In this document: positions 1,963 through 51,612 of the stretch, piece after piece | Numbering within the stretch: position 1 is the stretch's first letter | Layout of the letters: the number at the start of each line of letters is the position of its first letter | Source of the DNA: Candidatus Gastranaerophilales bacterium | Lineage (GTDB): Bacteria > Cyanobacteriota > Vampirovibrionia > Gastranaerophilales > Gastranaerophilaceae | Length of the DNA stretch: 64,000 bases | NCBI GenBank assembly: GCA_944324375.1 | Contig: CALUWB010000002.1 | Location: forward strand, 175 to 64,174 | Direction of reading: 5' to 3' | The notes under the pieces: generated by a model | Database searches by the model: none | What the model saw: the letters and a program-made list of their open reading frames with translations, nothing else | What the model was told of the DNA's origin: nothing | Made by a program: the position numbers and the translations under genes

Positions 1963-3873
1963 CTAGCCTCCAAACACTTTGAAACCTTGTTCAACGTGCT
2001 TATCTACTACTTTTTTAACAGCTTCCATTTCATTTTGTAATGCTGATTGTTCTGTATTTAATTGTTCAAGCCTTAATTCTAAATTTCTATCCTGAGCCTG
2101 TATAATTTCTGTTTTAGCATTTATATCTGCTATCGCTTTATCGTATTCTTTTTGCTTATAGTTATACTGATTAACAGCATCATTATACGCAGCTTCATCA
2201 ATTACGGTTTCAACATTCAAAGTATAAACAACTGAATCATTTTCAAATTTTACAGTTGAAAAACGGCCACTACCATCAGTATCTAACAAAGCTTTTTGAG
2301 TTTCAGTAACTTTAGTATCAAGATAAGTGGCATTATAATAAGCTAATTTATCCTGTTGTCCGTCAATACCATTATCAGCAATTGAATCTTCATCATAAGC
2401 ACTAGTTGCTGATTTTTCTAAATCAAATACTGTTGTATAGTATTTAACACCATCCTTTTCAAAAGAATAAATACCTCCGATATACTCTCCTGCTGCGTCA
2501 AAACATTTTGCAAAATTTTCGGCTGCAGCTGTACTACCATTAGGTCCTTTCATATCCTTTATAATTTGCTGAATTTCAGTAGAGATTGTACTATCTTTTT
2601 TATAATCATCTTGAGATAATAAAGTTAACTTACTATTCCCAACTGCAGTATAATCTTTAAAAGTCGGAGAATATTTTGCAGTATCAATTGGTAATTTAGA
2701 ACCAACTATCATTGTCTTTAAATCAGCTTCTTTAGCATAATTACCATCTTCATCTTTGAAATATACAGTTTTTGAATTACTTGCCAAAACTGTTTTATCT
2801 TTATGGTCTAATGAAGTTTGAGATTGCTTTATTTCATTGGCACTTATATAATTTCCATTTGCATCTTTATAGAAAGAATCATTTTTATCATAATCCGTTC
2901 CATAAACTTTTATAAGTTCAGCTTCTTGTGCAGCATCTGTTGTATCAACTTTGTTATAAACCGTTTGAGTATTAGTAACTTTATCAATATCAGATGTTGT
3001 AGCACCGTTTGTACCGTCAAGATTTATAGCATACTGTTCTGTAGTAGTTGATTTATAATATTTATTTTCAGCAACACCGCCTGCTTTTACTTTAGCGACA
3101 TCGGCTTCAAAATCTGTACCATAGATTGCAAGCATATTTTTGTACTGTTGGTCATCAACATCTAAAGTATTCAAATCTACAGGAGCATATGTTTGACCAC
3201 CATATGTATAGTTAGAACCTGCTTGAACAAAAGATGTAAGTGCCACACCTGCATTTTGAACAGAAGTCTGAATATCAGTATAGGTATAAGTATCAGCTAC
3301 ATCATTATAGCTAAAATAATCTGCAACCAGATTTGTTCCTGATATTGCATTAATTTTCATTCTGTCCAATGAATTATTGTTGTCCACCGGCCTGAACGTA
3401 TGTTTATAGTTGTTGCTATCTGTGATAATGTAAGACCCATTGCCGGTCTGAGTCGGAGGAAGTAGAGCTTTTACATAGAGCTCTTTGTGATTTTTAGCTG
3501 GATCATAGGAGTACTTGTCTGTTTTTACAGCCTGTACTTGTGGGTCATTCATCAATTTTTTAGACCCGGTGTAAACTTTTTCATAGTGATAAGATGTTAC
3601 TACATAGTTATATTCAGAGTCAGAATCACCTATTTGATAATAATTTTCTAAAACTGAATCATTAATACCATCACTATAAGAATATTCTAATTTAGTAAAA
3701 TCAGTTGAAGAAGGAGCTGTTGGAACCTGCATTCCAAGCATTTGATTAAACAAATCTGCTGTTTGGTTCGCAAGAATTAAACGAGATTGGTTAATCTGTT
3801 GACCTTCATATTCAACATTACTTTTTCTCGCTGTTAAAGCTATATATCTTGCTTGTGAGGCAGCCATTCCCAT
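1963..3873 (-). CDS. Hypothetical protein with a conserved N-terminal helix, variable core and coiled-coil C-terminus (paralogue of the 171-aa duplicated genes)
   Basis: 636-aa ORF. N-terminal MGMAASQARYIALTARKSNVEYEGQQINQ aligns without gaps to MGMLLMMFRKMHLIQKKNNIEFQLTDLNQ of ORFs 32618 and 33485. Identities are M1 G2 M3 R9 L13 K17 N19 E21 N28 Q29. The middle is rich in Asn/Asp/Thr/Tyr. The C-terminus is heptad-like (NLELRLEQLNTEQSALQNEMEAV). No family recognised. Confidence 0.8.
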   Translation of the reverse strand: MGMAASQARYIALTARKSNVEYEGQQINQSRLILANQTADLFNQMLGMQVPTAPSSTDFTKLEYSYSDGINDSVLENYYQIGDSDSEYNYVVTSYHYEKVYTGSKKLMNDPQVQAVKTDKYSYDPAKNHKELYVKALLPPTQTGNGSYIITDSNNYKHTFRPVDNNNSLDRMKINAISGTNLVADYFSYNDVADTYTYTDIQTSVQNAGVALTSFVQAGSNYTYGGQTYAPVDLNTLDVDDQQYKNMLAIYGTDFEADVAKVKAGGVAENKYYKSTTTEQYAINLDGTNGATTSDIDKVTNTQTVYNKVDTTDAAQEAELIKVYGTDYDKNDSFYKDANGNYISANEIKQSQTSLDHKDKTVLASNSKTVYFKDEDGNYAKEADLKTMIVGSKLPIDTAKYSPTFKDYTAVGNSKLTLLSQDDYKKDSTISTEIQQIIKDMKGPNGSTAAAENFAKCFDAAGEYIGGIYSFEKDGVKYYTTVFDLEKSATSAYDEDSIADNGIDGQQDKLAYYNATYLDTKVTETQKALLDTDGSGRFSTVKFENDSVVYTLNVETVIDEAAYNDAVNQYNYKQKEYDKAIADINAKTEIIQAQDRNLELRLEQLNTEQSALQNEMEAVKKVVDKHVEQGFKVFGG

Positions 3874-4771: not shown

Positions 4772-5221
4772 TTATTTATTGTTGTATTCTCTCAATATAA
4801 TTTTATATATTGGGAGATATGTAAGAAAATTTGAAAATAAAACTATTGAGAAAAATAATCCAACTATGATGTCGCCTTGACCTACTATGTATGATCCTAT
4901 GATATCAATGCTTATAAAAATTAATAATAATATATGAGCTAATTTTATATGTTTATGAAAATATGAAGTAAAATTATATATTTTGTCGAATTTTAGATAT
5001 AGTTTTTTTTCAATAAAATATCTAATTGGATTAGTAAATATTATATTGACTAATGAACTTATAATAGGTATAACCATTGCATATTCATACAAGGATGCAT
5101 TTTGTGATAATTTTATACTTGCAAGTATTACTATTGTAAGTAAACAAAAAATAATTATTGGTAAAAAATCAAAAAATAAAAATGCGAAAATAAATTTTAT
5201 CCAGTAATTCTTTTGTTCCAT
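4772..5221 (-). CDS. Small polytopic membrane protein, unknown function
   Basis: 149-aa ORF with about four long hydrophobic segments in an extremely AT-rich context. No family recognised. Confidence 0.6.
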   Translation of the reverse strand: MEQKNYWIKFIFAFLFFDFLPIIIFCLLTIVILASIKLSQNASLYEYAMVIPIISSLVNIIFTNPIRYFIEKKLYLKFDKIYNFTSYFHKHIKLAHILLLIFISIDIIGSYIVGQGDIIVGLFFSIVLFSNFLTYLPIYKIILREYNNK

Positions 5222-5340
5222 TTCATACCCCTTAATAATTTTATATTAATACAAATATAATCATATATATTAATATATTTTCAATTAAAAACAGTAAATA
5301 TATTATAAATATCTGAAAATTATGTTATAATATAATAATT

Positions 5341-5760
5341 ATGAAGGATATGATTAAACAATTATATCAAAGGTTTATTTCCTTAAAATCTATGTGGTGG
5401 ACGCATGTTCTATCTATTTTGACAAACATTTTTTTTATTCCGTATTTTATATTGATAATTATTAATATAATTATCAACATTATTATATGTTTTACAAATG
5501 GTAGTGGAATTAAAGAATACTCAATTTTAAATGGTATAATATCAATTATTTTTATTATTATATCTTATGGAATAATAATGCCAATCACTCTTGTAGTTTT
5601 TATTACAGAAATGTTTACATCTTTTAAATTAGTAGTAAAGAATAAAATTTTGATAAAAAATCCTGTTTACCATACATTTTGGCTTACAGGATTTATTATA
5701 TTTATTATAAATATGTTAATTATTTTTATTTTAAGACTTAAATATTGTTTGGGATTTTAA
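5341..5760 (+). CDS. Small polytopic membrane protein, unknown function
   Basis: 139-aa ORF with about four hydrophobic segments. It is divergent from 4772-5221, and its 3' end overlaps the convergent 543-aa gene by 23 nt. Confidence 0.6.
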   Translation: MKDMIKQLYQRFISLKSMWWTHVLSILTNIFFIPYFILIIINIIINIIICFTNGSGIKEYSILNGIISIIFIIISYGIIMPITLVVFITEMFTSFKLVVKNKILIKNPVYHTFWLTGFIIFIINMLIIFILRLKYCLGF

Positions 5761-7369
5761 TTGGTATATGTAAAATAAATGGTTCTAGATGCATTAATTC
5801 TTGTTGCCTTGCTGCATTATTATTTATATATATAATTAATTCTTTTAAAATATTTTTTCCTGTTTCATCTAATTTAATATTTGTTAAGTCCTTATTTAAA
5901 ATTTTATTTGATATTATTTTAAATGTCTCTATATATTTCCATTTTTCAAAATCAAAATTATCTATATAATCCATAACAATATTACCATTTTTATCAATAT
6001 GTGGATTATAAATATCGACATAATGTAATGTTAGGTATAATGATAAATTATTATATGAATTTGTATTATATTCATATTCAATAGTAATAATTTTATTTTT
6101 AAGTTTTCCTGCTCTAATTTCATTAATATTTTTATTTATAAATTGTTTTAATTCTGTAGAATTTATAATTTGTTTTGTTAAACTTGAATTATTTTTAACA
6201 CTAATAATATATGTATTATTAATTTTTTCTTCTAAATTTTTATCATTTACATTTAATTTACGGCTATTAATAATTTTTTGTTTTATAATATTTTTTAAAT
6301 TACTATTTTTTAAGTCTGAAAATTTAAAATATAAATTATCTTTATTATTATTTTTAATTTTTTTTATATCATTATCTGCTAATGATAGTGATATTTTATA
6401 GTATTCTAAAAATGGAAATATATTTGGGATGATTTTAGTTAGTGCCTTCTGACTGATTTGTGGGATATTTAGCCATTCATAATCTCTATAAATTTTAAAA
6501 TTTTCATGTAAGAAATTATGTATGCTTTTTTTTATAGATTGTTCAGATGTTCTCATTTCAAATTTATAACTGCCGTCAGGATTTTTAATTTGTTTATAAT
6601 CTAAATTGTTATCAACCGATATTATATTCTGATTTGTTGGAATAATATTTTTATCCATGTAATCATTATCATCTCCACCTTTTTTCTTAACTTTCCTAAT
6701 ATGTTTTGCTCCACAGGTTCTGATATAGTCCTCTACCTCTGTACCATCTTTTTTGGTATAGCCAGATACTTCATAAGAGCCAACACATGGTGTTTCTATA
6801 TATTCATATTGGTTATTTGTATTTGAATTATCAGTTTCTTTGTTTTCATCTTTAGGTATATTTTGTTCAATTTTACCTTCAAGAGGTTTATTTGCCGATG
6901 GCTTTATCTTTTCCACCTCTTGTTTCTCAAAATATACTTCATCAAAATCATCGTAGTTTTTATTCTCATTTAAAGATGTGACCATTTTACCGTCATAAAG
7001 CTTTTCTGAAATAGAATATGCAAGCATTGATTTTATTTGATTATCATTTAGATTTTTGCCTTTTATAGATTTTTTCAAATCTTTGGCAATTTCTCTTCCA
7101 ACTCTAGCATTCCAAATTTTCATTGAGGCTTCTTTTAATGTTTCATTATTGTATTCAGAATCCATTTTTAAATTGCTTTCAAATTGCTTTTTAGCAACTT
7201 TGTCACCATATTTATATGCAATATATGATGATATATATGCCATTCTAAATGCATCCAATTCATCGTTAAGACCATAAGTATTTGATTGTCTAAACTTATA
7301 ATAATTTTGAAATAATCTAACATCTTCTTCTAATCTTTGTTTAGTATAATCTTGAAATTTTAATACCAT
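5738..7369 (-). CDS. Large orphan protein; the N-terminal domain has a DAFR.AY...G...A...E...W N.R.GR.IA pattern
   Basis: 543-aa uninterrupted ORF with GGAGG upstream. The N-terminus (LDAFRMAYISSYIAYKYGDKVAKK...MKIWNARVGREIA) resembles the DAFRHxxW...NNxxGR motif of DUF6973-type domains; this comes from memory and is tentative. A middle Cys-bracketed stretch reads CVGSYEVSGYTKKDGTEVEDYIRTC. The C-terminal roughly 280 aa is Asn/Lys/Ile-rich. Confidence 0.7.
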   Translation of the reverse strand: MVLKFQDYTKQRLEEDVRLFQNYYKFRQSNTYGLNDELDAFRMAYISSYIAYKYGDKVAKKQFESNLKMDSEYNNETLKEASMKIWNARVGREIAKDLKKSIKGKNLNDNQIKSMLAYSISEKLYDGKMVTSLNENKNYDDFDEVYFEKQEVEKIKPSANKPLEGKIEQNIPKDENKETDNSNTNNQYEYIETPCVGSYEVSGYTKKDGTEVEDYIRTCGAKHIRKVKKKGGDDNDYMDKNIIPTNQNIISVDNNLDYKQIKNPDGSYKFEMRTSEQSIKKSIHNFLHENFKIYRDYEWLNIPQISQKALTKIIPNIFPFLEYYKISLSLADNDIKKIKNNNKDNLYFKFSDLKNSNLKNIIKQKIINSRKLNVNDKNLEEKINNTYIISVKNNSSLTKQIINSTELKQFINKNINEIRAGKLKNKIITIEYEYNTNSYNNLSLYLTLHYVDIYNPHIDKNGNIVMDYIDNFDFEKWKYIETFKIISNKILNKDLTNIKLDETGKNILKELIIYINNNAARQQELMHLEPFILHIPIKIPNNI

Positions 7370-7646: not shown

Positions 7647-7675
7647 TTGACTCTATTTTATGCTTTTCTTACAAT
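7647..7675 (+). promoter_or_regulatory. Sigma-70-type promoter
   Basis: TTGACT (7647-7652), exactly 17 nt of spacer, then TACAAT (7670-7675). The predicted transcription start is about 7682, at the start of the riboswitch-like leader. Confidence 0.6.
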
Positions 7676-7681
7676 TTTCAT

Positions 7682-7807
7682 GAGGAAATGAAGTGAATAT
7701 CTTCAGCTGTGCCGCAGCCGTAATAGCCGGAATACTCAAATTTTGACAATGTTTCGTCGCAAAACATTGTAGGCAAAGGGGTAAATGAAAGAGTAGAAAG
7801 GTTTATT
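7682..7807 (+). promoter_or_regulatory. Cobalamin (B12) riboswitch-like leader, short form
   Basis: The core at 7684-7735 is GGAAATGAAGTGAATATCTTCAGCTGTGCCGCAGCCGTAATAGCCGGAATAC. It is collinear with the nrdD leader and with the conserved B12 core (GGUG.AA.UCC...CCGC..C.GU...AGYC.GGA). A 9-bp hairpin follows (7746-7754 pairing with 7762-7770), then GAAAGG and a GTG start. Confidence 0.55.
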
Positions 7808-8527
7808 GTGAGTATCGCAGTATCAGCAATACAAGCATCAGGAGTACGTTCAGGGCTATGTCCACATGGTCTGCCACCTGGAGCTTGTCCTATATGCTCA
7901 GGTATGGGCTCAGGCTCAAACAAAGTTGTGACTGCCGATTTCTCTGCTAAACCTGGGGAGATGAGTTGGAACGAATGTGCTGCTATTGGTGCATTTCTTA
8001 AATCACTACAAAATGCCAGAATGGCGAGAGAAGCTGATTATCAACACCAACTTGTTGCAATTGCTCAGTTCCAAAATAATATGGCTAAAATGGCTGCTAA
8101 TTTGCAAACTTTTATCCAAAATATGAGCCAATCACCACTTACCAGACCTATTGCGTATGTTGCTCAAAACGTTTTACTTCCTGTGGTGAATTTTATGAAA
8201 GATTTACCGGTAAAATTCTTACAAATGACTGCTAATATTGGACAAAAATTAGCTGATATTTCTGATAAGTTAGCGGCAATTTATGGGGAACTTAAAGCTG
8301 CTATGGATAAGAAATTCTCTGATTTTGCTAAGAAAGTTAAGAAGAAAATTATTTCTATATTTGAAATATTTAGTTCTAATAATGAATCAACAGACGATGA
8401 AAAAATATTAGCATACCAAAAACAACTTAACAAAATACAATCATTTCTCGAAGGAATAAACAAAGAGCTCAATCACAAATACAAACAAATGGTTGAGAAA
8501 GATGTCGAAACTTCCTTATCTGCATAA
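7808..8527 (+). CDS. Hypothetical protein with an N-terminal Cys/His motif
   Basis: 239-aa ORF with a GTG start 7 nt after GAAAGG. The N-terminal GLCPHGLPPGACPICSG motif (C-x-H...C-x-x-C) is followed by long helical, Ala/Gln/Lys-rich sequence. No family recognised. Confidence 0.75.
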   Translation: MSIAVSAIQASGVRSGLCPHGLPPGACPICSGMGSGSNKVVTADFSAKPGEMSWNECAAIGAFLKSLQNARMAREADYQHQLVAIAQFQNNMAKMAANLQTFIQNMSQSPLTRPIAYVAQNVLLPVVNFMKDLPVKFLQMTANIGQKLADISDKLAAIYGELKAAMDKKFSDFAKKVKKKIISIFEIFSSNNESTDDEKILAYQKQLNKIQSFLEGINKELNHKYKQMVEKDVETSLSA

Positions 8528-8551
8528 CCAACAAATAGAAGGAATTAGATA

Positions 8552-10063
8552 GTGAATATTTATCAAGATCTAGAGGCACAAAGATTACATAGAAACCAAA
8601 CCAGAACACAAATCAAAACATCAAATTTAGTTAAAGAAGGAGTATTAGTAAATTCTAATGTTCCATTAAACGACTCTTATAATTCAATGTTGATTTCTGA
8701 TTCTGTTGAGATGCCTAACAAGTTGTATGAAAGAAATACCAAAAAAGAAAAAGGTTTACTCCCAATAGCTGCAGCGACAACAGGGTTTATGGGTTTAGTT
8801 GCAGCAGGAACTGCACTTTTAGCAAAATCTGCTAAAGATACTGTGGAAGTTGATTTAGCTAAAAAACTTCCTTCTATGACAAGAAATGTTTGTATAAATG
8901 AAGAAATCAATCAAGCAATATATAGAATGGTTGCATCTCCTAGTAAAAAAGCAACAAAGGCAATGCTTGGTGTTGCAGCTATTTCATCAATGGGATTTAT
9001 GGGTAAAACCTTCTGTGATGGGTTTAGAGATGTTTGGGTGAAGAAAAAAGAGGCTGATATCCATAAAAACTTACAAGAAAATCTTATAGCAGTAGAAACT
9101 CAATCTTTTGCAGGTAAATTACAGATTAATAGAAGTCTTTTAGCTGAAAAGGCAAAAGAATTTTCAAAGGTCTTGGCTGAAAACCCTGAAACGGCTGAAA
9201 ACTTCAAAAGTCATCATATTCATTTCAAATCAAATAAGTCAAAAGATACTAGTAACAAAAAACAAAAATCTTCATTCCTCAAAAATCTAGGTTATTTTGC
9301 TCTAGGTGCTGTATCTTTAGCTGCAATTACAGGTTTTGGATATATTTCGATGAAAAATATTCGAAAAAGTGTTTCTTCGATGAAAGAAGGACGTGAAAAG
9401 GTTAAAGAATCAATCAACTTTATAATTGAGAGTATGAAAAATCATTCTCCAGAAACACTTGGAGTTGAAGGACATAATGAAGCAAAAAAATTAAATAGTA
9501 ATAACATAAAAAATCTGCTTGTATCAATGGACGCAACCCCTGAAGAAGTTGCAGAAACTGCTAAAAAAATGCACTGGCATAATGATGAACAGCAAAAAGA
9601 ATTTATTGAAGATACATTATTCACAATAAGAAAATCAACAGAAAAAGCTAACAGTGCTCTAGGTGGTTCAGGTGAAGACAGAAACACTTTCTATTCACAC
9701 GTTAATGATTATACTGCATTCTTCTATAACTGGATGCTTGATTCATCTAACAAACAATTCAAAAGTCTTTTCTTAGGAATAACAGGAGCAACTGCTGCAA
9801 CATATTTAGGTAAAACAACAGGAGAAGCTATAAAAGATGTTCAGGTAAAAAAATATAATGCAGAAACTGAGCTTTCTCTACAACAAAGACTTGTTGCAAC
9901 AGAATTAAGAAACTTCAAATCTAAAAAAGAAGCATCTATTCAACCATTATGTGATGAATTTTACAGACAAAAAGATAATGGCAAGCCTAAAGAAGAACTA
10001 AAGGTTATGGCTGATAGTATATTAGGAGAAATCAAAAACGGTCCTCCTTATGTATATTCATAG
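8552..10063 (+). CDS. Hypothetical membrane-associated protein
   Basis: 503-aa ORF with a GTG start, 24 nt after the preceding gene. It has several Gly/Ala-rich hydrophobic segments (LLPIAAATTGFMGLVAAGTALLA, MLGVAAISSMGFMG, LGYFALGAVSLAAITGFGYISM, LFLGITGATAATYLG). No family recognised. Confidence 0.75.
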   Translation: MNIYQDLEAQRLHRNQTRTQIKTSNLVKEGVLVNSNVPLNDSYNSMLISDSVEMPNKLYERNTKKEKGLLPIAAATTGFMGLVAAGTALLAKSAKDTVEVDLAKKLPSMTRNVCINEEINQAIYRMVASPSKKATKAMLGVAAISSMGFMGKTFCDGFRDVWVKKKEADIHKNLQENLIAVETQSFAGKLQINRSLLAEKAKEFSKVLAENPETAENFKSHHIHFKSNKSKDTSNKKQKSSFLKNLGYFALGAVSLAAITGFGYISMKNIRKSVSSMKEGREKVKESINFIIESMKNHSPETLGVEGHNEAKKLNSNNIKNLLVSMDATPEEVAETAKKMHWHNDEQQKEFIEDTLFTIRKSTEKANSALGGSGEDRNTFYSHVNDYTAFFYNWMLDSSNKQFKSLFLGITGATAATYLGKTTGEAIKDVQVKKYNAETELSLQQRLVATELRNFKSKKEASIQPLCDEFYRQKDNGKPKEELKVMADSILGEIKNGPPYVYS

Positions 10064-10102
10064 GGGTAGGGGTAAATATATTCACAAATTGAAAAGGTAA
10101 AA

Positions 10103-10561
10103 ATGATAAATTCACCGGTATTTAGACAATTCAAGCAACAACAACATTTCAAACCGATAGAACTTCCTAACGAGAATAGGAATTATTGTCTTGTTGATAA
10201 AAATAAGGTAGATTTCTACGTAAATCAAAGAGAAAAAGCTCTACCTAAGCTTGAAAATATTCTGAAAAAATCTAACGATGAAAAAGAGGTTACTGAAACC
10301 TTATATATTGTTGATCAAATGATTGATAATGGTGTCAAAGGTGTTGATAAAATGTACCCAACATTATCAAGATTTAATGATACAAAATCACCTAATATCC
10401 AAACATTTTTGGCTGGGATTTATCGTAAAACAAAAGTTCCTGATGCCTTTGGACCTTTATGTACAATGCTTATACAAAACTCTATAAATCCCCCTAAAAC
10501 ACCTCAATATTTTAATCCAAATGAAGAAATCGGCGGAGCTATTTTAAGTTACTTGGCATAA
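10103..10561 (+). CDS. Hypothetical soluble protein
   Basis: 152-aa ORF with AAAGG upstream, 39 nt after the preceding gene. No family recognised. Confidence 0.7.
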   Translation: MINSPVFRQFKQQQHFKPIELPNENRNYCLVDKNKVDFYVNQREKALPKLENILKKSNDEKEVTETLYIVDQMIDNGVKGVDKMYPTLSRFNDTKSPNIQTFLAGIYRKTKVPDAFGPLCTMLIQNSINPPKTPQYFNPNEEIGGAILSYLA

Positions 10562-48964: not shown

Positions 48965-49645
48965 TTATCGTATACCTACACTTTTTATATACAGTTTTAA
49001 TATGTTCATTATACATTTTATTTCTGATTCTGTATACCCCTTATCGGCTAATAAATTATTATCCAATATTTTAGATGGAACAAATTTTTGGATAAAATAC
49101 TTGTCAGCACCTGATATCAGCTTTCCCATTTCTTCAAAATCTTTTATTAATAATTGTGAAGATAATGCTGTTGTTCTAAATTCATAAGGAATTTTACCCT
49201 TTAATAAAAATTTTATACTTTCGTTTACGCCAATAGGTTCTACACATGTAATCATTTTATATTTTGATAATGGAGCTTTTATATCCATTGCAACATAATC
49301 AATCAAATTTGATTGAACCAAATCCTCTAACATTTCAGGATTTGTTCCATTTGTATCAAGTTTCACTAAAAAATCTAATGCTTTAATTTTTTTTATAAAT
49401 TCAGGTAAATCCTTATGAATGGTAGGTTCTCCACCTGTTATAACAACTCCGTCCAATTTCCCTTGTCTTGTTTTTAAAAATTCCAAAACTTTTTCTTCAT
49501 TCCATTCAGAATTAGAAAAAAATAACTCAGGATTGTGGCAATAACCACAACGGAAATTACAGCCTGAAGTAAAAATTATTGCAGAAATTTTATCAGGATA
49601 GTCCAGAAGTGAAAACTTCTGGACTCCACCTATTTTTATACACAT
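48965..49645 (-). CDS. nrdG: Anaerobic ribonucleoside-triphosphate reductase activating protein (radical SAM)
   Basis: 226-aa ORF. It has the CNFRCGYCHNPE cluster motif and GVVITGGEPT. It overlaps the nrdD end by 10 nt. Confidence 0.9.
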   Translation of the reverse strand: MCIKIGGVQKFSLLDYPDKISAIIFTSGCNFRCGYCHNPELFFSNSEWNEEKVLEFLKTRQGKLDGVVITGGEPTIHKDLPEFIKKIKALDFLVKLDTNGTNPEMLEDLVQSNLIDYVAMDIKAPLSKYKMITCVEPIGVNESIKFLLKGKIPYEFRTTALSSQLLIKDFEEMGKLISGADKYFIQKFVPSKILDNNLLADKGYTESEIKCIMNILKLYIKSVGIR

Positions 49646-51474
49646 AAATTGTATGTCTTTCGTTCCTTGAACTCTTGTTTTTTACCTCTGTTCCATTGAT
49701 TGACAGGTCGAATATAACCGACAATTCTTGAATAAACTTCGCAATCAGCCCCACAGGTTGGACATTTAAAATGTTCACCTGAAATATATCCATGATTTGG
49801 GCAGGTACTGAATGTTGGAGAGAATGTAAAATATGGAAGCTTATAATTAGAACAAACTTTTTTTACAAGATTTTTTGTAGCTTCTATAGATGTAATTCTT
49901 TCTCCTGCAAAAATATGTACAACTGTTCCACCTGTATATTTTGTTTGAAGCTCATCTTGGTGATCAAGAGTTTCAAAAACATCATCAGTATAATTTACAG
50001 GTAATTGAGTTGAATTAGTATAATAATCATATTTTTTAGTATTATCCAATTGAGCCAAGCGATATGAAGTTCCCTCGCCTGGGGTTGCTTCAAGGTTATA
50101 ATTATTACCTGTTTCTTTTTGATATCCAATTATTCTCTCTCTCATAAAATCCATTACTTCAAGAGCAAAATTTTTACCCCTCTGAGTTCCAATATCTTCG
50201 TTTAAGAAATTCAAACAAGCCTCATTCATACCGATTAAACCAATTGTTGAAAAATGGTTTTTCCAATATACACCATATCTTGATTTGATATCTCTTAAGT
50301 AAAATTTTGTATATGGATAGAGGTTTTTATCTGTATAATCTTCCAAAATTTTGCGTTTAATTTCTAAACTTTCTTTTGCGATATCCATTTTGTCAGCTAA
50401 AATTTCAAAGAATTCAGCTTTGTTTTTAGCAGAAGTTGCAATTTTTGGAAGATTTATTGTTACAACTCCAACTGAACCTGTTAGAGGGTTTGAGCCAAAT
50501 AAACCACCACCTCGATATTCCAACTCACGATTATCGATTCTCAATCTACAACACATTGAACGAGCATCTTCTGGGTTCATATCAGAATTGATGAAATTAG
50601 AAAAATATGGGATTCCATACTTTGCAGTCATTTCCCAAAGCCCATTTAATTCTTCATTATCCCAATCAAAATCTTTTGTAATATTGTATGTTGGGATAGG
50701 AAAAGTAAATACACGACCTGAATTGTCTCCTTCCATCATTACTTCAAAGAATGCTTTGTTTAGCATATTCATTTCTTTTTGAAATTCTTTATAAGTTTTA
50801 TCCTGAACTTCGCCCCCTATAATTACAGCCAAATCAGCATAATAACTAGGGACAGTTAAGTCCATTGTTATATTAGTAAATGGTGTTTGGAATCCAACAC
50901 GAGTTGGAACATTCATATTAAAAACAAATTCTTGAATAGCTTGTTTAACTTGAGAATAATCAAGATTATCATAATAAATAAATGGTGCTAACAATGTATC
51001 GAAGTTAGAAAAAGCTTGCGCTCCTGCAGCTTCTCCTTGCATTGTGTACATAAAATTAACAACCTGACCTAAAGCTGAGCGAAAATGTTTTGCAGGCGCA
51101 GATTCAACTTTTCCCTTAACACCTGTAAAACCTTCCATCAATAAGTCTTTTAAATCCCATCCTACACAATATACAGATATAATATTCAAATCATGGATAT
51201 GAATATCACCTGACAAATGTGCATTTCTAATTTCTGAGTTATAAACCTTATTAAGCCAATATTTTTTGCTGATTTCAGATGCTAAATAATTATTCAAACC
51301 TTGGATTGAATAATCCATATTAGAATTTTCATTAACTTTCCAATCCAATTTATTCAAATACTTTTCAACAAGTAAAACACTCTCATCCATAAATTGTTTT
51401 GGGTTAGAAACAAAATTTTCTCTAACAGCTTTCAAGCCAACAACATTGGCATCTCTTCTGATTGCATTTTTCAT
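49636..51474 (-). CDS. nrdD: Anaerobic (class III) ribonucleoside-triphosphate reductase
   Basis: 612-aa ORF. It has the C-terminal zinc ribbon CPNHGY...CPTCG and the glycyl-radical region SRIVGYIRPV. Confidence 0.95.
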   Translation of the reverse strand: MKNAIRRDANVVGLKAVRENFVSNPKQFMDESVLLVEKYLNKLDWKVNENSNMDYSIQGLNNYLASEISKKYWLNKVYNSEIRNAHLSGDIHIHDLNIISVYCVGWDLKDLLMEGFTGVKGKVESAPAKHFRSALGQVVNFMYTMQGEAAGAQAFSNFDTLLAPFIYYDNLDYSQVKQAIQEFVFNMNVPTRVGFQTPFTNITMDLTVPSYYADLAVIIGGEVQDKTYKEFQKEMNMLNKAFFEVMMEGDNSGRVFTFPIPTYNITKDFDWDNEELNGLWEMTAKYGIPYFSNFINSDMNPEDARSMCCRLRIDNRELEYRGGGLFGSNPLTGSVGVVTINLPKIATSAKNKAEFFEILADKMDIAKESLEIKRKILEDYTDKNLYPYTKFYLRDIKSRYGVYWKNHFSTIGLIGMNEACLNFLNEDIGTQRGKNFALEVMDFMRERIIGYQKETGNNYNLEATPGEGTSYRLAQLDNTKKYDYYTNSTQLPVNYTDDVFETLDHQDELQTKYTGGTVVHIFAGERITSIEATKNLVKKVCSNYKLPYFTFSPTFSTCPNHGYISGEHFKCPTCGADCEVYSRIVGYIRPVNQWNRGKKQEFKERKTYNLCV

Positions 51475-51578
51475 AATAAAAATCTCCTAGTCTCGTAAGT
51501 ACAACTTGAATCAAGCGTTCCGACTATAACGGCTGCGGACCAGTGAGGGACTTGCACCCTACTTTCCTTGAATAAGTA
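51475..51578 (-). promoter_or_regulatory. Cobalamin (B12) riboswitch, short form, in the nrdDG leader
   Basis: The minus-strand core at 51568-51515 is AGGAAAGTAGGGTGCAAGTCCCTCACTGGTCCGCAGCCGTTATAGTCGGAACGC. It matches the conserved B12 core (GGUG.AA.UCC....C.GG.CCGC..C.GU) and has a B12-box-like AGUCGGAA. TAGGAG is the RBS before the ATG. Confidence 0.65.
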
Positions 51579-51583
51579 AAATC

Positions 51584-51612
51584 ATTATACAACTTTTAAT
51601 AAGTCATGTAAA
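51584..51612 (-). promoter_or_regulatory. Sigma-70-type promoter with extended -10 for nrdDG
   Basis: On the minus strand: TTTACA (51612-51607), 17 nt of spacer ending in TG, then TATAAT (51589-51584). Confidence 0.6.

Follow-up and report, generated by a model that had tools for sequence, protein, structure and literature searches.

BtuG-type surface proteins, ECF-CbrT and BtuM are examples of orphans that were first flagged by vitamin B12 (cobalamin) riboswitches and later turned out to function in the uptake of B12. The great majority of known cobalamin riboswitches govern genes for the transport or synthesis of B12 or for isozymes that do not need it, and those of class II act via a kissing interaction between the loops L5 and L13, the Rfam family RF01689 showing a preference for small upper ligands (PMC5028336). 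In this study we analysed a leader RNA and the three genes behind it (P1, P2 and P3) in a stretch of 64,000 nucleotides (nt) from Candidatus Gastranaerophilales bacterium (contig CALUWB010000002.1 of assembly GCA_944324375.1; hereafter the window). The Gastranaerophilales (Melainabacteria/Vampirovibrionia) are non-photosynthetic relatives of the cyanobacteria, which are widespread in gut and rumen and are uncultured. The leader is almost certainly a genuine cobalamin riboswitch, and P1-P3 form a clade-restricted triad without known relatives. Our preferred explanation of the whole, to which we assign a probability of about 0.4, is that the locus is a B12-riboswitch operon that encodes a module for B12 limitation, most likely for the capture, import or delivery of corrinoids.

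Conservation of the leader upstream of P1

Using one genome per species, relatives of P1 were found in 197 stretches and 80 loci (L001-L080) were analysed, where L001-L022 form the subgroup of the window and L023-L080 are the more distant relatives. A covariance model (R1) was built from the aligned P1 leaders and run against Gastranaerophilales DNA totalling about 935 kb. It matches upstream of P1 in all 80 loci, i.e. in every one of these species-level Gastranaerophilales genomes, and extends to two distant loci outside its training set, namely L086 (68.6 bits; P1, P2 and P3 being 32%, 32% and 52% identical to the window proteins) and L085 (48.5 bits; 29% identity for P1 and P2). The L086 leader also reaches RF01689 itself, at 41.6 bits, and 18 of 20 short related loci pass the gathering threshold of that family at the leader position (37-53 bits). 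In all of the 80 loci but L079, the B12-box pattern CCGU.A.AG.CGGAA precedes P1 on its own strand by 77-212 nt (79 loci), and its columns are invariant in the leader alignment. The box is split in the P1 leader of L079 (1321-1455), where the P6 loop is enlarged by an insert of about 60 nt, the aptamer being otherwise of the standard class-II type. R1 matches other than those in P1 leaders numbered eight, of which seven are nrdD leaders and one is weak (24.6 bits, L071); within the roughly 0.9 Mb searched, B12 sensors thus stand only before nrdDG and before the triad, L071 set aside. Additional B12-box matches in L006 and L022 lie within coding regions and are not recovered by R1, and were therefore discarded as chance occurrences.

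The base pairing of the aptamer is conserved likewise. Among the 77 distinct leaders, the closing helix is paired in 97.8% of the alignment cells, the main hairpin in 99.7% (with compensatory changes in four of its five pairs), P5 in 91.3% and the invariant P6 in 100%, and RNAalifold recovers three of these helices unaided. The outermost helix of the Rfam model (7673-7678 with 7738-7743 in the window) is paired in just 57.8% of the cells, which leaves it unsupported, and its position coincides with the likely transcription start or precedes it. Of 78 relatives, 63 have a TTGAC motif ahead of the B12 box, at a median distance of 74 nt, and 77 of 79 leaders contain a -10-like hexamer that ends 6-16 nt before the aptamer. 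The lack of the outer helix and the fixed place of the promoter together imply that the RNA probably starts at the aptamer core; in the window, the promoter sequence would put the start of the transcript probably near 7682.

In the window itself the leader core (GGAAATGAAG...GGAATAC) begins at 7684 and the GTG start codon of P1 lies at 7808, which gives a leader of about 125 nt. A cmscan of the whole window at the Rfam gathering thresholds returned two matches to RF01689 and one tRNA, and nothing else. The match ahead of P1 (7673-7743, plus strand) has a score of 38.4 bits (E = 1.4e-5) against a cut-off of 36.5 bits and is, at 1.9 bits over this cut-off, marginal by itself; we nevertheless call the leader a riboswitch because the comparative data decide the matter. 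Its P6 consists of a stem of three base pairs with a loop of 7 nt and is devoid of the peripheral extension whose absence separates RF01689 from class I (RF00174). The elements CCGCAGCCGT and AG(C/T)CGGAA are common to the P1 leader and the leader of nrdDG, the site of the second match. As an RNA the leader is unremarkable within a known class, and the novelty lies in its cargo.

Much of this had been put forward in an initial annotation made from the letters of the window and a list of its reading frames. The promoter TTGACT-17 nt-TACAAT, the leader of about 125 nt and its core at 7684 were found at the coordinates given there (the promoter scoring 10/12), the two elements do occur in both leaders, and the three open reading frames (ORFs) do follow one another at 24 and 39 nt without a terminator in between. 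The claim of a B12 riboswitch, for which a comparison with Rfam had been proposed, held for both leaders (38.4 and 42.1 bits, both over the gathering threshold). The covariation in related genomes, for which a search had likewise been proposed, was found for the P1 leader, in the core helices as well as in the L5-L13 interaction described below, and homologues of the genes are indeed repeatedly preceded by B12 leaders, i.e. in the 80 loci and the two distant ones.

Table 1. Positions, within the window, of the leader elements, the P1-P3 genes and the nrdDG locus
Feature	Position	Strand	Details
Sigma-70-type promoter	7647..7675	+	TTGACT 7647-7652, 17-nt spacer, TACAAT 7670-7675; scan score 10/12
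Class-II cobalamin riboswitch aptamer core	7682..7737	+	RF01689 match spans 7673-7743
Aptamer closing helix	7682-7684 with 7735-7737	+	
Aptamer main hairpin	7689-7693 with 7701-7705	+	
Aptamer P5	7708-7710 with 7714-7716	+	loop L5 UGC = 7710-7712
Aptamer P6	7718-7720 with 7728-7730	+	
B12-box-like element	7718-7731	+	CCGTAATAGCCGGA
Regulatory hairpin P13	7746..7770	+	ACAATGTTT, loop CGTCGCA, AAACATTGT; predicted in window and relatives
Ribosome-binding region of leader	7775..7801	+	Shine-Dalgarno-like AAAGGGG 7775-7781; mini-ORF; Shine-Dalgarno sequence of P1 GAAAGG 7796-7801
P1	7808..8527	+	239 amino acids, GTG start
P2	8552..10063	+	503 amino acids, membrane protein
P3	10103..10561	+	152 amino acids
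nrdG	48965-49645	-	Radical_SAM/Fer4_12
nrdD	49636-51474	-	PF13597 NRDD
Second class-II cobalamin riboswitch	51507..51584	-	RF01689, 42.1 bits, E = 1.1e-6

Expression platform and direction of control

Every leader has a hairpin directly 3' of the aptamer (P13 in Table 1), the loop of which is complementary to the loop of P5. In the window it is the GCA at 7759-7761 that is complementary to the UGC of L5, and just three pairs form. In 60 distinct leaders, the four-pair interaction between L5 and L13 is paired in 87.1% of the cells as compared to 70.3% in shuffles, none of 500 shuffles reaching the former value, where it should be kept in mind that the alignment was assembled by motif anchoring and favours the result somewhat; controls in which the loops were slid reach at most 62%. 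The loop combinations in these leaders are CUGC/GCAG, CAGC/GCUG, UAGC/GCU(A/U/G) and UGU/ACA, and the pair types include 44 UA and 14 AU. Such a switch from U:A to A:U is hard to explain otherwise than by a kissing loop.

Downstream of P13 the leaders diverge. In 55 of the 80, all of them within L023-L080, a hairpin of the form CCUC(U)...(A)GAGGA is followed by a tract of five to seven U residues and then by (A)AUG, and judged by its sequence this hairpin should sequester the Shine-Dalgarno (SD) sequence and resembles a terminator. The 5' strand of the aptamer, AGAGG, is identical in sequence to the SD, and in 27 of 48 hairpin-type leaders the ligand-free structure of minimum free energy (MFE) pairs this strand downstream of the aptamer and not with its own 3' strand, which suggests an OFF switch based on strand exchange in the leaders of this type. 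For the riboswitch as such, repression by its ligand is very probable.

The ribosome-binding region of the window leader contains a mini-ORF of three codons (ATG AAA GAG TAG, 7785-7796), the stop codon of which abuts the SD of P1 (GAAAGG). Close relatives have start-stop modules of the form GGGGTAAATGTAA or AGGGTAAATGTAG (L004, L006) or a duplicated module, GAAGGATAT-ATG / GAAGGATAT-GTG (L005, L007). By analogy, the mini-ORF could provide a coupling via an upstream ORF (uORF) like that reported for a B12 riboswitch of M. tuberculosis (PMC11260477). The leaders constitute a natural series of class-II platforms in which the coupling of one aptamer to different outputs can be studied, and comprise three forms, namely a kissing loop with a separate SD/terminator hairpin, a hairpin-free form and the mini-ORF modules.

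The P1-P3 proteins and their surroundings

The order P1-P2-P3, with the three genes side by side, is kept in 78 of the 80 loci. In the window they are separated by 24 nt (P1-P2) and 39 nt (P2-P3), and a scan of the window for terminators found no terminator-like site between them on the plus strand. The constant core is the riboswitch with P1, the make-up of the operon being variable. Each of the three families has some 1,200-2,300 homologues, none of which is named by any source; in the case of P1 there are 1,640, and among the 120 listed the sole Pfam domain is one marginal coiled-coil match; the listed homologues of P2 and P3 show no Pfam domain. Searches with the whole proteins and with segments gave no match in Pfam or NCBIfam (E <= 10), sequence-profile searches of the PDB found no relative, PHROG gave no match at E <= 0.01, and PADLOC gave nothing below E = 0.001, the closest being a weak match of P2 to Csm2 (E = 0.0017). 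This includes the known families of B12 importers (BtuB, BtuFCD, ECF-CbrT, BtuM), none of which is matched by P1-P3 in Pfam or NCBIfam; such searches are able to detect importers, because a TonB-dependent receptor and ECF-S-like proteins are readily recognised in other contigs behind similar riboswitches. The earlier statement that the proteins belong to no recognisable B12 transporter or enzyme family thus holds, and extends to families of any other kind.

At its N-terminus P1 has a knuckle, C18-P-H20-G...C27-x-x-C30, that is invariant and is kept in relatives with 26-31% identity, and that is a candidate metal site. It is followed by a Gly-rich linker, a conserved EMS(W/Y)xE motif and about four long helices; the AlphaFold2 model is unreliable, with a predicted local distance difference test (pLDDT) of 48.6. 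We also considered C57 of P1, within NECAAIG, a segment that recalls the cap helix of HgcA, as a ligand of the Cys-on type for corrinoids, and rejected it as it is not conserved in distant homologues. P1 and P2 are unrelated in a profile-profile comparison. P2 has two strong hydrophobic segments (residues 72-90 and 249-267) and two weaker, Gly/Ala-rich ones (137-155 and about 405-423), and contains an internal duplication (residues 126-211 versus 395-489, self-BLAST E = 6e-11). When 1.84 billion proteins were searched exhaustively with a hidden Markov model of P2, just 209 representatives reached E <= 0.001 and no link to a larger family emerged, from which we conclude that the P2 family is small and clade-restricted, and the longest and the partial homologues of P2 carry no fused Pfam domains. 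P3, finally, is modelled as an all-helical repeat with high confidence (pLDDT 91, predicted TM-score 0.84). A Foldseek search of the PDB gave generic ARM/HEAT matches alone (best E = 0.08, TM-scores of about 0.45-0.58) and the sequence searches gave no family, so that the model resembles the ARM/HEAT fold, which is a likeness of fold and not membership of a family. It is the best conserved of the three proteins: most loci that have P1 at 42-49% identity have P3 at 58-72%.

Several neighbours of the triad were considered as well. The genes lptC and lptA, followed by a tetratricopeptide repeat (TPR) gene and dprA, come after the triad only in L001, L002 and L004, and because the linkage is restricted to these three closest relatives they fall outside the conserved unit. 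The initial annotation had left open whether transcription reads on into the lptC/lptA-like genes: they are not part of the unit, and as the window has no terminator between them and the triad, read-through is possible. About 28 of the 80 genomes have, 54-150 nt behind P3 and in the same orientation, a gene for an orphan protein whose ends are conserved and whose middle varies, and which may be associated with the triad as a loose fourth component; its homologue in the window (1963-3873, minus strand, 636 amino acids), which matches in the N- and C-terminal regions, lies 4 kb from the triad. Immediately ahead of the riboswitch and in its orientation, 7-10 genomes have a gene for a putative DtxR/MntR-like repressor together with one for an orphan membrane protein of 333 amino acids with Gly-rich segments and no Pfam match (L036:4311-5794, L024, L034, L044, L050, L052, L053). 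In the window, the region upstream of the promoter (4772-7369) encodes three orphans without a family match, of 149 (minus strand), 139 (plus strand) and 543 (minus strand) amino acids, the first two being very hydrophobic.

A scan of metagenomes with the riboswitch core alone returned 120 contigs, and since the pattern was derived from the P1 leaders the proportions among them are biased. A P1 homologue is the first downstream ORF in 41 of the 120, with identities down to about 25%, and nrdD in seven. Other riboswitch contigs of low GC content encode a TonB-dependent receptor, ECF-S-like proteins, a DUF4430 protein and an orphan membrane family, and tblastx was uninformative for the assignment of the TonB-receptor and ECF-S contigs to the Melainabacteria. 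An orphan, Gly-rich hydrophobic family (506-571 amino acids when complete, no Pfam match) is encoded by the first ORF after a class-II riboswitch in four independent contigs (L089, L160, L171, L191; GC content 0.32-0.37). The 571-amino-acid member of this family and the other riboswitch-linked metagenome proteins were examined as possible kin of P1-P3 and dropped, as they have no similarity to P1-P3 or to the neighbour genes.

Possible function and comparison with known systems

Given the usual targets of cobalamin riboswitches, the triad is most simply explained as a B12-repressed module that is needed when B12 is scarce. The operon would be transcribed from the conserved promoter just upstream and be controlled by the class-II (RF01689, env8-type) riboswitch: binding of cobalamin would stabilise the aptamer and the kissing loop, which would make the anti-SD available either for masking the SD or for ending transcription, so that P1, P2 and P3 would be made only under B12 scarcity, in parallel with nrdDG. 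P1 (metal knuckle and coiled coil), P2 (a duplicated protein with two to four transmembrane segments) and P3 (ARM repeat) might then act together at the cytoplasmic membrane. That the triad serves the B12-repressed acquisition or handling of corrinoids at the inner membrane we propose tentatively; that it is the core of an undescribed system for the acquisition or trafficking of corrinoids, specific to the non-photosynthetic relatives of the cyanobacteria (Gastranaerophilales and related Vampirovibrionia), composed of a Cys3His-knuckle coiled-coil protein, a small duplicated membrane protein and an ARM-repeat scaffold, and unrelated to BtuB/BtuFCD, ECF-CbrT and BtuM, is a further step that we regard as doubtful. 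With respect to the physiology of the hosts, published reconstructions of gut Melainabacteria contain no B12 synthesis (PMC4914512 Table 1; PMC3787301), the hosts being presumed B12 auxotrophs, and the riboswitches of nrdDG and the genes for corrinoid proteins in some members imply that these bacteria use imported B12; in the literature we found no statement on B12 uptake, riboswitches or the P1-P3 genes in Melainabacteria. The neighbours of the operon speak for this context too, with nrdDG nearby in eight genomes and genes of the corrinoid Fe-S protein type directly ahead of it in six. The idea of a B12 module was already part of the initial annotation; the riboswitch and the lack of recognisable families stood, and no feature of the sequences or of the P3 model ties the proteins to corrinoids.

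Several observations weigh against this explanation. Searches of Pfam and NCBIfam found neither a B12-binding domain (PF02310 or similar) nor a transporter family in P1-P3. P1 and P3 have no signal peptide or hydrophobic segment in a hydropathy scan and look cytoplasmic, P2 has just two to four hydrophobic segments, which is few for a carrier, and P3 is conserved to a degree that one would sooner expect of a housekeeping partner than of an accessory to uptake. Moreover, one lineage is without P2 and has the riboswitch, P1 and two P3 paralogues (171 and 207 amino acids; L162:4924-6809, also L073, L109, L123, L175 and L205), and in another lineage P1-P2 occur without an adjacent P3 (L106, L133, L151, L199). 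As to the RNA, the leaders of the window subgroup show no visible sequestering hairpin or terminator, the fold of the whole window leader is no better than that of shuffles (z = -0.65), and an activating corrinoid riboswitch has been reported (PMC10327014), by which the OFF logic is not guaranteed.

It is unlikely, in our estimation, that B12 is read here as a signal of niche or growth and that the triad is a lineage-specific envelope or cytoskeleton-like complex of coiled coil, membrane anchor and ARM scaffold, tuned by B12 and without a role in its metabolism. P1 consists mostly of long helices, P3 is built of a protein-interaction repeat and is conserved like a core cellular component, and both the orphan with conserved ends and the lptC/lptA genes, which in the window follow the operon, would suit such a complex. 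However, the lpt linkage is not conserved, the strict linkage of riboswitch and P1, which has no exception among the 80 loci and persists at protein identities as low as about 30%, favours a direct dependence on B12 status, and known cobalamin riboswitches are overwhelmingly found on genes for B12 transport, synthesis or isozymes (PMC5028336).

Still less probable is that the triad supports a B12-independent route, e.g. as an accessory or scaffold of the class III ribonucleotide reductase (RNR) NrdDG. The two operons share a class of riboswitch and presumably its logic in the window, and nrdDG is a near neighbour of the triad in 8 of the 80 genomes and in three metagenome contigs; in six of the eight, R1 detects the nrdD riboswitch (L050:2322-4286, L052, L023, L028, L031, L070; minus strand, upstream of P1), whereas it found none upstream of nrdDG in L055 and L057. 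(In four genomes the nrdD aptamer match measures about 130 nt, which indicates an insertion of about 50 nt, possibly an extension of P6.) The cytoplasmic appearance of P1 and P3 and the Cys/His knuckle of P1 would also agree with this reading. Against it, P1-P3 have no enzyme-like fold or family, and an adjacency in about 10% of the loci could reflect clustering of a regulon. We know of no accessory of such a kind described for class III RNRs.

Quite improbable is an activating switch, by which the operon would be made when B12 is present, for instance for the loading or protection of corrinoid enzymes. Besides the precedent cited above, two observations would agree with it: in the window subgroup the GGGG of the first SD-like sequence could be paired by the 3' strand of an open aptamer, and in six genomes (L032:1754-3726, L038, L040, L046, L047, L061) the riboswitch and P1 are immediately preceded, on their own strand, by a pair of CdhD/AcsC-type genes for corrinoid Fe-S proteins (PF03599, PF04060). 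The standard repressing layout of 55 of the 80 leaders, with its SD-sequestering hairpin and U tract, is at odds with such a switch, as are the identity of the aptamer 5' strand with the SD, by which it can be an anti-sequestrator in the unbound state, and the likeness to the nrdDG leader, where repression is expected. Finally, a chance resemblance of the leader to a riboswitch, for which the score of 1.9 bits above the cut-off, the unsupported outer helix and a leader MFE no better than that of shuffles might speak, is effectively refuted by the comparative data, i.e. by the same position of the leader in 80 of 80 genomes, the compensatory changes in the helices and the pseudoknot, and the matches of R1 to leaders outside its training set.

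The riboswitch is a functional label that is independent of annotation and that ties three unnamed families to B12 status across an order, and through the triad the B12 supply and economy of the Melainabacteria becomes experimentally addressable. Compared to the known members of RF01689 (AdoCbl-variant/AdoCbl-II, AdoCbl being adenosylcobalamin; model member env8HyCbl), the leader has the same closing helix, hairpin with GUGAA loop, P5, P6 and CCGU.A.AG.CGGAA core, no peripheral extension of P6, the kissing of L5 with the loop of a downstream hairpin, and a score over the threshold. It differs in that the transcript of the window seems to start at the aptamer and the outer helix (P1 of the RNA) is missing, that the SD of most relatives is placed not inside P13 but in a hairpin of its own further 3', followed by a U tract, and that the window subgroup is without an SD hairpin and has a mini-ORF or a duplicated SD-start module instead.

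The nrdDG operon of the window has a riboswitch of the same class with a near-identical core and is presumably likewise expressed at B12 scarcity, but whereas its rationale is obvious, the enzyme being an isozyme that does without B12, none is apparent for P1-P3, which fall into no known family. With PPE2 of M. tuberculosis, for which a B12 riboswitch with uORF coupling has been reported (PMC11260477), the locus shares such a riboswitch, a short ORF between aptamer and first gene and an operon of uncertain function; the likeness is suggested by the three-codon ORF at 7785-7796 and the modules of close relatives and is not family-wide.

The orphans BtuG, ECF-CbrT and BtuM offer a parallel in the way in which the triad came to notice, i.e. 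as unannotated genes in B12-importing hosts for which a conserved cobalamin riboswitch was the sole clue. No similarity of sequence or fold to any of these was found for the triad: those are surface lipoproteins or carriers with multiple transmembrane segments, whereas two of the three proteins of the triad look cytoplasmic and P2 combines few transmembrane segments with large helical soluble regions. What is known here is the class of the riboswitch; what is new is its uncharacterised, clade-wide cargo.

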